DNA of 64,000 bases, taken from positions 21,144,001-21,208,000 of the forward strand of contig CM052816.1 in assembly GCA_028534125.1 (NCBI GenBank), read 5' to 3'. The notes beneath the pieces were generated by a model, which was not told the origin of the DNA, did not search any database, and was given only the letters and a program-made list of their open reading frames with translations. This stretch comes from Lama glama. Its lineage: Eukaryota. A program made the position numbers and the translations under genes. The number at the start of each line of letters is the position of its first letter. Positions within the stretch are counted from its first letter, which is position 1. Positions 1,242 through 56,076 of this stretch are shown here, in pieces.

Positions 1242-1412
1242 CTAGACTAGAGAGGAGTCCAACCAAGAAGGGATCACCATTATGCTCCAAAGGGCATTGG
1301 GGTACGGACACAGAGGCTGGCAGGTGAAACAGAAAGTGCAGGAGGATGACTCAGAACTTGCCAGCTGCTGCTTTACTAGTTTCTTGCAGCGGTTCAGCTG
1401 CCAAATACTGAC
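1242..1412 (-). CDS. CCNI2: CCNI2 exon 6 coding part (VSIWQLNRCKKLVKQQLASSESSSCT... to TAG)
   Basis: aattacag| acceptor; first ~26 codons resemble the human last exon, then the frame departs and reads to TAG at 1244-1242. Confidence 0.7.
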   Translation of the reverse strand, partial: VSIWQLNRCKKLVKQQLASSESSSCTFCFTCQPLCPYPNALWSIMVIPSWLDSSLV

Positions 1413-2051
1413 CTGTAATTAAAACAGAACAGTGGTCCTTGAGGAGATCCATTCTACATTCTGAAGAATGAGTAACTGAGTGACAAAATGTTACCATGGA
1501 GCAATTCAGGAAGATCCAACCACCCAACTTAATAACATTAACACCACCATCTCAGGGACCTCCCTCTTCAACCTCAGTAAAACTGCTGTTAGTCTAACTG
1601 CATTCTGTCTTACCCTGTCCATCCTGAGCGATTCTGACCTCCCAGTGTCTACCTCATGGTACCCCAGTGCCTGGTACCAGATCGAGCGTCAGGGGTCTGA
1701 AATTTACATTCCCCAATATTACCCCCAGGGTTGCTTCCTCCTGAGCTAGACATGTCCCTGCATCCTCTTGCCTACAAGGACTGCCACTGAGATAAAGCTT
1801 CTCTCACTGTCAGAGAAACCCACTCCAACTGGTCTGGTGAAGGTAATCTGTGTCTCATACCCAAGCCCAGACAGCGTGCCATGTGTGGAAAGCCTAGCCC
1901 CGAGGAAGACTCTGTTCAGAGTCATGATGGCCAGACCATCCTCTGGAGCCCACAAGGGCAAAGAAGGGCCATGGGTGCCCTTTTGGGGTCAGAGTGCATC
2001 AGCTAAAGGGGCAAAACTGAGAGCCTGGTCAAGGGCAAAGTTGATTTCTAC

Positions 2052-2282
2052 CTGTGCTTTCTTTAGCAGATCAGATATAGGAGTACAGCAGTCGGGCATG
2101 AGCCTCTCCAACTCTAAGGTGATGATGACCAAGGCCAGTGTGGAGCCCTTGAACTGCAGCAGCTGGTGGCCCGCCATACAGTGCTGCAGCTGCCTGGTCA
2201 GGGACGCGACGTGGAGGGAAGGATTCCTCTGAGGCAGCAGCTCCTTCACATGGGGCCAGCCCAGGACCACCAGGCCGTGGAA
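2052..2282 (-). CDS. CCNI2: CCNI2 exon 5 ([19 protein letters not shown]...DLLKKAQ)
   Basis: ctccag| acceptor, CAG|gtagaa donor, 231 nt; near-identical to remembered human protein. Confidence 0.9.
2067..2232 (+). CDS. SEPTIN8: Septin-8 alternative terminal coding exon (upstream exons lie before the window)
   Basis: Acceptor tgtgctttctttag|C AGA TCA GAT; translation [54 protein letters not shown] (TGA 2230-2232) matches the remembered C-terminus of the long human SEPT8 isoform; synteny SEPT8-CCNI2-KIF3A. Confidence 0.9.
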
Positions 2283-3430
2283 CTGGAGACCGTGGTTTTT
2301 AACGTTAGAACAGAAAACCCCCTACTTTTCATTTATCAATGACCAAAAGTGCAAACAATTTAAAAATTTCCATCAGGGAACATCAAATGTTGTCCAGCCC
2401 TTTTCATTTCCATTCATGCCCCCACAAGGGGCTTGAGTCATGGCCTCACAAGGGGCTTAAAGCTTAATACCCACTCTGTGGCCAAGCTCAGTTTCAACCC
2501 TGGAGAGAAAAAGACAGTTTGTTTTGTAACATGGTCATTATGAGCCTAAAGTGCCCATGACAATGTTTCAATTCTGAAAAATAGAAGCCTACGATTCAAG
2601 ATTAAGGTAGCAGAAGAGTTACTTGTATCTGCTGGACATGAAAAGAAACTCTGCAACTTGGCAACAGTGACTAGTTTTCATGATACAGCCCTCAGTGATT
2701 TAATCTTCATGCTTCATAACAGACCAAAACCCCATGACATTTCCACATTGCATAATTTTGCCTTACTAACAGAATCATACCCTTAAGGATAACCATCATT
2801 CTCTAACTAAAACAAATACAAACTAATATGACATTTTTTAAGTGCCAGATCAATATATGGTCTAAAGCCTCAATAAGGATTGTGTGTAGGTGAAGAAAGA
2901 CAGCTAAGTGAATGTGTGTAAAGTGTAGCAAAAGCAGACAGATTTTTATGTACAGTATTCATAGAATGGAAAGTTACATATTTTTGCAGTGTGTATTTAA
3001 AAGAGAAACTCACCATAATAGTGCCGTCTAAAAATCTTTGTAAAGTTAATTTAATGTCCTTTAGAAGTGGGAGTCTGGTGGAACTGTGTTGGATTTAAGA
3101 TAAAATTACACTCTTCCGTATGTCGTGAGCCTGTGGGTCACCTCACTGTGATGCATGTGCAAGGATGTGTGCTTTGCCATCCTATGTTGTGAACAGCTGT
3201 TCCAAAGGCACAAATGAGTCCAGGGTAGGCTCTGGAAAGTCCTCATACTTACTATGACCAAGAAATCCAGCGGTGTCCCAATATAGTGGTCCCAGTGCAG
3301 TTTGTCCAAAATAGCCAGCTCCATCCTCAGCAGCTCATTCGGGGAATAGCCAGAGCCATAGTGCTTTATGAAGTCTTATATGCGTGGAATTAACTGTAAA
3401 AAGAAAATAAAGAGGCCAAAGCCCTACTCC
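2233..3430 (+). other. SEPTIN8: SEPTIN8 3'UTR with poly(A) signal AATAAA at 3406-3411
   Basis: Repeat-free AT-rich sequence after the stop; first AATAAA I found downstream is at 3406-3411, followed by GT/T-rich sequence; end position inferred. Confidence 0.65.
3253..3393 (-). CDS. CCNI2: CCNI2 exon 4 (LIPRI*DFIKHYGSGYSPNELLRMELAILDKLHWDHYIGTPLDFLVI), contains in-frame stop
   Basis: tttttacag| acceptor, ATA|gtaagt donor, 141 nt; codon 6 is TAA. Confidence 0.85.
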
Positions 3431-4833
3431 ATGTCATGGTAGCTTTTGTTTTCTTATCCCTGGGGGGGCTGGGCATCTATGACCCTAGTAGATTTGTCTT
3501 CTAGTGACCTGTCACTGAAGCTGCTTCTGAAAGAAAAACCAAACCAGATCTTGGCTATCTGTCAAGTCCCCAGGTACCTGTGACAATATGTAGTGAATGT
3601 CACATGGTCACCCTCTGCCAACAGGTCTTGCTCCCCAACTGTACTCCAGCTTATACCCGAAGGTGCCTTGGAGGCTGGGGCTGTGCCGTCTCCCCGATTC
3701 AGCTGTAAGAATGCACTCAAAGCTTTCCAGCTGTAGGCTCTACCCATTTCTGTTATCTTTTCCCTTGTCTTTGAGAAGAAGAGTAAGTAAGCCTTTGAGC
3801 TTCATGGTCTAAATTAGACAGATTCATTGATAAAACCTCTCATGGTTTTGGCAACACCATAGCTGCAAACACATTCCTTTCAGCCTTTATTTAAGGCAAT
3901 TCACTTCTGGAAAAACTATGACTTTTTCCCAGGGAGACTAATAAGGCTTGTCTATGAGTAAACATTCAAGTACCAAGTGCTTTGAAGGCTTGGTCCTACT
4001 TTTTTAGATAAAGTATTACTATAACCTCTAGAAATATTTCTTTCAAGGACTATTTTCTTGACTTTTAATTGGACAAAAGTATCTTGTGGGACAGAAATTA
4101 TACTCTAATAAACAGGGTTAAAATATTTTTTATTGACTGTTTGGAACTGCACACATAAGCAACTTTTTCAGGCACCCTTGGTTCCTGAGATCAGCCGAGG
4201 GAGTCCTTGTAGAAATGGTGGTGGTTCCACTATCCTGAAAGGGGAAGAGGTTGGAGGGATGGAGGAAGGGAGGTGTGGGAAGGATATTGGAAAAGAATCT
4301 TATACTAAACAGAAGCCCTAGTGCAACTGAGAAGTTCAAGCGAGCCTGAAGTACTTATGGGGGCTTCTCTTCCACCTGCTGCACATGGCCCTCATGCCCA
4401 TTTTGGAGAATGGTCCCAGAGTCCCTGAAGACCAGTTTCATTGATACAGCCAAGTCCTTAAGTCTCAAGCAACTTTCTTAGATGTAGTTTCTGAGGGGTG
4501 GCCATTAGGCCATATGGTTTGGAAGGCCTTTTCCTCTGCTTAGTGGGAGGTGGCATCTGGCATCAACCAATGAAACAACATATCATATCTGCCAGGATGT
4601 CAGGCCTCTGGCTTTGCTGGGCCAAGACCATTCAGCTGTGCTAATTCCTCATTTGTGGGGTGCCAGATTCTGGCAGTCCTTAGGAAGGAACAGCAGAGAT
4701 CCTGGATAGGTAATGAGTTTTCCAAAATGCCCATTCCCAAGAGCTCAGACCTTTCAGGAAACTTGAGTGCTCCCAGTGTTACACACCCTGATACTTCGAA
4801 AGCAGCTGAGAATGAACTTCCAGGGATGCATAC

Positions 4834-4908
4834 CTCCTCCTCTTCGTTAACTTTTGCAGCAAGTCTTAAGGAAGTAATTGTGACACAATGGAGTAAATGC
4901 TTTTTTAT
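4834..4908 (-). CDS. CCNI2: CCNI2 exon 3 (IKKHLLHCVTITSLRLAAKVNEEEE)
   Basis: ctgcag| acceptor, GAG|gtatgc donor, 75 nt; cyclin-box LAAK.EE motif. Confidence 0.9.
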
Positions 4909-5491
4909 CTGCAGTATGGAAGAAACACATTCAAGCAGAATATGAATGCCAGAAACTAACTATAAAGCATCTGTGTTTTTTTTAAGAACTTAAGTTTTTT
5001 CTTTTTAAATTTTTTAAAAAGACTGATTATATTTATCTATAAGAAAGTTAGTCCCAGTTTTAGATGTGACCAGTGATAACTTGGTTTCAGAACCACAGAT
5101 AACTGACTAGTCTAGTCCTTTGTGGGAGGACTGACTGAAGGTGGGAAATATGGCACTATCTCAGGCAACACACAGCTCCATCCTGGCCTTTCGCTGCACT
5201 GGACCAGTCCAGACAAGCACACCCCACCTCATCACATGGGGAGTCCTTTCCCAACTGTATCTTCTCATGCTCCCCAGATGGACCCCTGTCAGCCGCACAA
5301 CACTGAGCCAGACAGGCACAGTGGTAGGACATGGAGAGGTTGCAATTCCAGTTCTACCACTTGGAGCTATTTACATCGTTTATGAGCCTCAGTTTGAAAA
5401 TCTGGGATGGCTCACTTGTCAGGCAGCAATGGGAAACAGAGGTCAATTTCTGCGCCCAACATCTGTCACCATCCATCAGAGATCTCCCTAC

Positions 5492-5623
5492 CTTTACTGA
5501 AACCATGAGGCGACTGAAGATACTAAGAGCCAGGTTAAAAGTGGTCTGGGAGAAGTCAAAGATGTTCTCAATTCTCAGGAGCCATAACATGACTTCCTGG
5601 AAGGCGTCGCAGGTCTCCACTTG
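5492..5623 (-). CDS. CCNI2: CCNI2 exon 2 (QVETCDAFQEVMLWLL...LMVSVK)
   Basis: ctcttcttttcag| acceptor, AAG|gtaggg donor, 132 nt, phase 0-0. Confidence 0.85.
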
Positions 5624-5899
5624 CTGAAAAGAAGAGGTCGGGGAGGGCAGGGAGGGTCTCTGGTGGCTGGACTTGGTGCACCAGGGGCTCGACCCCCTGC
5701 TCAATGTGCCCAGAGGAGCTGTGAGAAGCGCCTTCGCCTTAAATCGCGGTCGGATAAAGTGCCTCTCTTGTCTAGCAGCTCCCTCAATTCAGACCCTTCT
5801 TCCCGCACCCATTGTTTTGGTCCTAAGCAAAGTTCCCCAATTCAAACAAGCCCTCGTCACAAGCACCTACTAGAGAAGTACCGTTTCAGTGAGAATCCC

Positions 5900-6780
5900 G
5901 GAGAGTGCCGCCTCTTGTCTCGTGCAGGGGACGCACCTGGGGAAGGTGCTGACTCCAGGGTGCGGCTCACCTGAGCCAGGGTGCAGGCGGAACCCGGCCG
6001 CGTCCGCACGGTGCGCGCGTGAGGACGGGGATGAACGTGCTCCTGGGAGGGCCCCGCGCGAGGACCGGGGCCTGGAGTTGGCCGCCCCGCCACAGGCGCG
6101 CCTCGCGGCCCAGGGCCTGCGTCAAGTGGGCGTCCAGCTGGCGCTCGTCCACAGCGCCTGCCCAGTCTTTCGGCTCCAGGAGGCACTGGCCTAGGTCGCG
6201 GGGCGGCGGGGGTGGCTTCCACATAGCGAGGGCTGGGACGGGGCGCGCAGCTTGCCGAGCCTGCGTTGCCCTCAACCTCGGTCCGGTCCCGGACGGTGCG
6301 GGGAGCCGGGCCGCTCCACGCTGGTACGCCTCCGGGAAACTTCGGCTCGCCGCGGGGAGAGACACTTCCCCCGGAGGCGGCGAGAGAAGACAGCGAAGGG
6401 CCGTTGCGTCCGGACTCTCGCCTGGACGCTGGACAGGTCCTACCTCCGAGGCCAATGTCTGCGGCGGGGGCTGCCCGCCGGAGGCCATGGCGGCGCCAGG
6501 TCCTGGGTCTGGGTCCCGGCTTAACCCGGCTTTTTCTAACCCAGCGCCCGGGACACACAGCTGGGGCTGCGCGGGGCGGGGCGGTCTCTGCGGGCCCACC
6601 CCGCAGCCCTGGCCCGGGCGCTGGGGGCTCGCTCCTCCTGGCCACTTGCTCGCGAGGTGAGGGGCACGCACCTGGGACGCGGCGGGACAGGGCACACAGG
6701 TGGGTGAAGGATCCCCCCTACTCGTCCGGCCACCGAGCGCCAACCCACTGAGCCCCTCTTCCCCACCCTAAGTCCGAGTC
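5900..6780. promoter_or_regulatory. CpG island / CCNI2 promoter-exon 1
   Basis: Very GC- and CpG-rich; GC boxes ggggcggggcgg at ~6573-6584. Confidence 0.8.
6072..6488 (-). CDS. CCNI2: CCNI2 exon 1 coding part (MASGGQPPP...EARLWRGGQLQ, 139 codons)
   Basis: ATG at 6488-6486 in gccgccATGG Kozak context; 3' boundary placed by protein homology and followed by GCCCCG rather than GT. Confidence 0.7.

Positions 6781-11765: not shown

Positions 11766-56076
<44,311 letters not shown>

Follow-up and report, generated by a model that had tools for sequence, protein, structure and literature searches.

An in-frame stop codon inside the cyclin box of an otherwise intact camelid CCNI2 gene, a possible recent gene loss

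Has the atypical cyclin gene CCNI2 been lost in a camelid lineage? The question was raised by a 64,000-nt stretch of the Lama glama genome (hereafter the window), for which the original prediction had reported a TAA codon in CCNI2 exon 4 and proposed a probable lineage-specific gene loss. CCNI2 is described in PMC5256034 as binding and activating CDK5 through its cyclin box, in agreement with the activator role given in that prediction, and according to the same report mouse and rat lack the gene in their genomes and it is 'missing in many species'. A lineage-specific absence of CCNI2 is thus already in print for mouse and rat (PMC5256034), and since the gene is described there as absent from both, it is known to be dispensable in some mammals.

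We modelled the gene by tblastn with the cyclin-I2 proteins of goat (P0023), whale (P0024) and rhinoceros (P0016), in which all six exons were aligned, and obtained the following features.

6072..6488, minus strand: CCNI2 exon 1, coding part; ATG at 6488, 139 codons, open; aligned by tblastn with goat, whale, rhinoceros, hippopotamus, sheep, monkey and squirrel
6070..6071, minus strand: donor of exon 1, GC (CAG/GCCCCG) in place of GT
5492..5623, minus strand: exon 2, 132 nt, phase 0, intact, AG/GT
4834..4908, minus strand: exon 3, 75 nt, phase 0, intact, AG/GT
3253..3393, minus strand: exon 4, 141 nt, 47 codons, phase 0 at both ends; acceptor AG at 3395-3394, donor GTAAGT from 3252
3376..3378, minus strand: premature TAA, CCNI2 codon 214
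2052..2282, minus strand: exon 5, 231 nt, phase 0, intact
1242..1412, minus strand: exon 6, coding part, 56 codons and stop, open

The internal exons are all in phase 0 and all multiples of three. Apart from the TAA, all six exons are open, with no further stop and no frameshift, and nine of the ten splice sites are canonical, the exon-1 GC donor being the sole candidate for an additional lesion. The joined frame from the ATG at 6488, with exon 1 ending at 6072, contains exactly two stops, the one at codon 214 and the terminal one, and the premature product is 213 residues long, which is the size that had been estimated (~213 aa).

The premature stop reads TAA at 3378..3376 of the minus strand (TTA at 3376-3378 of the plus strand) and lies 16 nt into an exon with good splice sites. 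Its minus-strand context is ...ttttacag/TTA ATT CCA CGC ATA TAA GAC TTC ATA AAG..., so that the exon 4 text originally given as L I P R I * D F (* for the stop) matches the sequence exactly and in the coding frame. The frame itself was established by tblastn with the goat, whale and rhinoceros proteins, in which 'ELIPRIKDFIKHYGSGY...' was aligned to 'QLIPRI*DFIKHYGSGY...' of the window over 3396..3211. Across 23 mammalian orthologues the codon 214 column holds lysine in 21 and asparagine in the other two, both New-World monkeys; the lysine corresponds to K222 of goat P0023 and is nearly invariant in alignment A1. The orthologue in the window therefore carries an inactivating mutation at a conserved coding position, in which the altered base is the first of the codon, at window position 3378. 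The human sequence FIPQVKDF, which had been quoted as the basis for a lysine-to-stop change, is the one read by the primates of the 23-orthologue alignment, the human protein itself not being among the matches.

That the gene is CCNI2 was evident from the protein searches. With the exon-4 translation, in which the stop was replaced by X, 77 of 78 candidate proteins were significant, the top identity was 92% and most of the named matches were cyclin-I2 or CCNI2, several others bearing the UniRef name Cyclin-G1. The exon-5 piece gave 240 protein matches, the best of which was a Camelus ferus protein (P0082) with 100% identity, and the 65 residues searched were 97-98% identical to those of pig, goat and whale. 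The best matches of the individual exons were cyclin-I2 proteins of other mammals, as expected of a CCNI2 orthologue. Exon 5 (2052-2282) is nearly invariant at the protein level across 23 mammals, with NPSLHV, AGHQ and one 17-letter run unchanged in all 23, and the N-terminal exon is only 40-60% identical among mammals.

We then examined the copy number and the surroundings of the gene. Searches of the same genome with exon 4, exon 5 and P0082 matched only a single contig (C1) at 100%, giving one intron-bearing CCNI2 copy; the other matches were paralogues with 44-63% protein identity and tiny contigs of a retrocopy with 76-92% (86-92% at the DNA level). No intact duplicate able to take over for CCNI2 was found in these own-genome searches; over 440 aligned nt the retrocopy has four indels that break the frame or change the length. 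Pieces of a kinesin motor domain, in order along Pfam positions 1-327, were encoded by 6 of the 150 scanned ORFs, on the plus strand between window positions 14767 and 39497, and this kinesin gene adjoins CCNI2 head-to-head with a G+C-rich island at about 11.4-12.3 kb between them. By human gene order the neighbour is presumably KIF3A, which would fit the KIF3A-CCNI2 arrangement of human. In human the 3' part of CCNI2 overlaps SEPTIN8 on the opposite strand, and such an overlap might add to the constraint here.

The retrocopy offered a view of the codon before the change. The own-genome loci L010-L012 and L014-L022, on contigs of 210-315 bp, represent a dead processed CCNI2 retrocopy: no intron interrupts them at the exon 3/4 and exon 4/5 junctions, and they share 86-88% identity with the spliced coding sequence. 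Its indels are a 4-bp insertion, a 1-bp deletion, a 3-bp deletion and a second 4-bp insertion. Where the gene has ATA TAA GAC, the retrocopy has GTA AAA GTC, and because it reads AAA, the change from AAA to TAA would be a single A-to-T step that took place after retroposition. Together with the lysine found in 21 of the 23 orthologues, the AAA of the retrocopy points to AAA as the ancestral codon 214 and bears out the lysine-to-stop change originally proposed. All of the retrocopy sequence is on tiny unplaced contigs, grouped in twos or fours with single-base differences, and these groups resemble unresolved assembly bubbles or two copies. One further locus (L028, G000:C450814) has a link to the retrocopy.

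What would the stop do to the protein? In goat P0023 the Pfam domain Cyclin_N (PF00134) spans residues 147-252 with 66.8 bits (62.7 bits in whale P0024; cut-off 23), and the stop corresponds to K222, inside the cyclin fold as had been claimed. Exon 4 of the window alone reached 20.4 bits (E=4.5e-4), under the 23-bit cut-off, which is the expected outcome with a piece of only 47 residues. The AlphaFold model of goat CCNI2 has a mean pLDDT of 51 and is usable only about residues 150-250, where the pLDDT is 70-84. It places helices at 145-164, 173-189, 194-212, 221-228 and 234-254, and in this moderately confident model the stop coincides with the beginning of the fourth helix (221-228), before that of 234-254, exon 4 thus probably encoding the last helices of the first cyclin fold. 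Translation ending after 213 residues would keep the first three cyclin-box helices and lose the last two together with the whole second cyclin fold, and because these parts would be missing, the truncated product is predicted to be unable to act as a cyclin partner of CDK5.

The transcript is predicted to be affected as well. Nonsense-mediated decay (NMD) generally acts on stops that precede the last exon-exon junction by more than 50-55 nt. Here 123 nt separate the stop from the exon 4/5 junction, beyond which follows the exon 5/6 junction; both junctions had been counted in the original prediction. Since the stop precedes the exon 4/5 junction by this distance, a normally spliced CCNI2 mRNA is a predicted NMD substrate, as was also proposed, and would be degraded. 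Loss of CCNI2 function is the expected outcome. The functional CCNI2 of human and chicken, described as a CDK5-binding activator in PMC5256034, is the same gene with the same exon structure and a kinesin neighbour, and mammalian cyclin-I2 proteins are 84-92% identical to the window in exon 4 and 89-98% in exon 5; the difference is that here codon 214 ends the frame within the cyclin box, so that the CDK-binding fold could, as judged from the sequence, not be completed.

A gene loss presupposes that the stop is real and fixed. Alternatively, the assembly or the sequencing may be in error at this codon, or the sequenced animal may carry a rare or heterozygous allele, with CCNI2 intact and functional in the species. 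Such a reading fits the rest of CCNI2, which looks fully constrained, and the very fragmented assembly, which consists of 1,072,352 contigs, many of them of 200-430 bp. However, a substitution error that creates a stop within a coding sequence of ~1.2 kb should by our estimate be rare a priori, and the sequence context does not appear typical of substitution errors. The own-genome DNA search returned no alternative exon-4 contig near 100%, only C1 and the retrocopies at 86-92%, and exon 4 is absent from every camelid protein model found. The exon-1 GC donor is, moreover, a second unusual change in the same gene, and with two changes at critical sites an assembly error becomes less likely than with one. 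We consider an erroneous or rare stop a serious rival, if somewhat unlikely, and lean slightly towards a real and recent nonsense mutation that disabled canonical CCNI2 in this camelid lineage, either as a very young unitary pseudogene or as a spreading null allele.

The exon-1 donor can be read in two ways. In all three orthologues that read through the site (whale-like P0078, squirrel P0042 and mole P0053) it encodes valine (GTN), which implies GT, and the change from GT to GC, a second lineage-specific one at a functional site, may be a second hit. It may also have no effect, as another GT in frame follows after 6 nt (6065-6064) and the orthologue models differ in their exon-1 donors, several being in use. 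A consensus donor (CAG/GTGAGC) is found about 100 nt further on and is in frame only with another exon-1 reading frame, that of the deer and dog models.

Data from other animals and from transcripts were also compared with the locus. In fourteen DNA runs, a share of 0.94 or more of the words sampled from window 1300-6500 was present; six of these runs were unflagged as possible sources and came from five studies and four organism codes. The 5.2-kb stretch as a whole is present nearly unchanged in other animals, word sharing being silent on the single base 3378. Two RNA runs from reproductive tissue held 0.20-0.21 of the words, near the exonic share (1119/5201), a word share that alone shows neither expression nor splicing. 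Among transcript-derived proteins, an exon-1 query at near lengths gave four matches, the best with 60% identity and none from the camelid lineage, and neither a truncated nor a full-length camelid CCNI2 ORF was found.

If the gene has been lost, when did this happen? At sites otherwise invariant in the 23-orthologue alignment, the window has one private change, compared with 0-7 in other mammals. We also compared 129 codons of the gene and the retrocopy, with the changes polarised by the majority residue of 13 orthologues, and counted 3 non-synonymous changes on the gene side, 22 on the retrocopy side, 1 ambiguous and 11 synonymous. The difference between 3 and 22 was significant (binomial p = 1.6e-4; 5e-4 if the ambiguous codon is assigned to the gene side) and indicates that purifying selection acted on CCNI2 through most of the period after retroposition. 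Relaxed selection, the branch-specific signature suggested in the original prediction, was thus not seen at the protein level by either measure. Gene loss was partly supported: the in-frame stop in the orthologue stood, but the rest of the gene is intact and the signature of relaxation was not seen. Because the protein-level tests show long-term constraint, the lesion is young; if this is a loss, it is a young one, and the decay expected of an old pseudogene is absent from the gene.

The age of the lesion also bears on a variant of the disabling mutation in which the loss is old, common to all camelids and earlier than the camel/llama split. No camelid protein with exon 4 was found (none among the 77 exon-4 matches), which is indirect evidence for a loss, and the C. 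ferus model avoids the exon. By our own arithmetic, neutral evolution is allowed for up to roughly a third of the age of the retrocopy, and the camel split lies, on a rough estimate, at perhaps a fifth of that age. On the other hand, an old loss would have left just one or two lesions after many millions of years, and between exon 5, which follows the stop, and its C. ferus counterpart there are 0 differences, where we calculated about 4 under neutrality. The exon-5 protein is identical between the two genomes, while neutral stretches differ in ~4-11% of residues between this genome and dromedary P0108. We therefore regard an old, camelid-wide loss as distinctly unlikely.

Only two camelid entries, P0082 of C. 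ferus and P0108 of the dromedary, were present among the 120 exon-5 matches listed (of 240). P0082 (hypothetical protein CB1_000434006) represents the same locus of a related camelid: the exon-5 query is identical, and the glycine in FHGLVV and the C-terminal ...ASSESSSCT... tail are common to both. It differs from the window in being an automatic model without exons 1, 3 and 4, which starts inside exon 2, joins exon 2 to exon 5 and stays in frame, and in 6 of 151 residues compared by eye with the window translation, so that the host is a camelid but a different one from C. ferus; P0082 says nothing direct about codon 214 in Camelus. P0108 ('Cyclin-I2 [Camelus dromedarius]') also derives from CCNI2, but it corresponds to the processed retrocopy with flanking sequence and not to the gene. 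In this protein exon 4 is followed directly by exon 5, the exon-5 query matches with 85% identity, and the part upstream is found on a different contig of this genome; because P0108 represents the retrocopy, the name 'Cyclin-I2' is misleading.

P0082 suggests a further possibility, namely that the stop is real but bypassed, exon-4 skipping giving a selected in-frame product similar to P0082 with exon 2 joined to exon 5. Skipping would keep the frame because exon 4 is 141 nt long and in phase 0, and the phase-0, multiple-of-three structure of all internal exons is compatible with such products. Exon-3-skipping CCNI2 models or transcripts exist in sheep (P0002) and deer (P0020), P0082 omits exons 3 and 4 with the frame kept, and this genome and C. 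ferus share an identical exon 5. All three gene-side non-synonymous changes (K214*, L244H and T254V), moreover, are in exon 4, although the clustering of 3 of 4 changes in this exon was not significant by our estimate (p about 0.14). A protein without exon 4 would, according to the goat model, miss two helices of the first cyclin fold; P0082 had no Pfam match to Cyclin_N, and it is an automatic gene model, not a transcript. We accordingly judge a functional bypass to be improbable. A combination, in which the stop is old and common to camelids and exon 5 is kept through the in-frame exon-4-skipping transcript, whose product would lack a complete cyclin box and have a role other than classical CDK activation, is slightly more improbable still.

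In the favoured reading, a recent disabling mutation, one germline A-to-T change would have converted the AAA lysine codon of the single CCNI2 gene to TAA, and the locus would now be a young unitary pseudogene or an inactive allele heading for fixation. It would resemble the absence from mouse and rat in being a lineage-specific loss of the same non-essential atypical cyclin. It differs in that the gene is reported as absent there, whereas here the gene body is almost perfectly preserved around a single nonsense codon, and it would be a much younger event. Among the exon-4 and exon-5 matches listed, squirrel, beaver, kangaroo rat, pika and rabbit were present, and mouse and rat were absent. 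In the literature searched we found nothing on a camelid CCNI2 loss, and among the listed papers on CCNI2 and pseudogenes none dealt with an evolutionary loss by title or abstract start.

If the stop is fixed, camelids would join mouse and rat as a second group of mammals lacking CCNI2, a member of the small set of known CDK5 activators, which would add to the evidence for its dispensability and provide a natural knockout in a large mammal. With everything else in the gene intact, the locus would also show a pseudogene at a very early stage. In practice the value is modest and lies mainly in a warning to annotators: the dromedary 'Cyclin-I2' represents a retrocopy, and there is a stop in the real locus.

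Patterns of the two exons were also searched in metagenome contigs. The exon-4 patterns matched 73 stretches, none of which was confirmed, and the exon-5 patterns gave four loci with a best identity of 73%, none of them a close relative; neither scan yielded camelid DNA. The 73% stretch was at 5616-5807 of a 6611-bp contig (L003), which is presumably animal DNA in an environmental sample.

Finally, the C-terminal part of the gene showed two features of its own. The window reads ~38 residues beyond the stop of goat, whale and horse, and a 1-bp deletion considered as the cause was rejected, as primates and a bat share the frame (...RSFQSSSCTDNF...); because they read the same frame, the extension reflects a stop/sense difference at one codon. 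An isoform in which exon 5 is read through into intron 5 is common in mammals (29 protein letters). In the window (1989-2051, minus strand) this read-through is cut short (...ADAL*) where most others have a cysteine codon, and a tamarin model stops there too.
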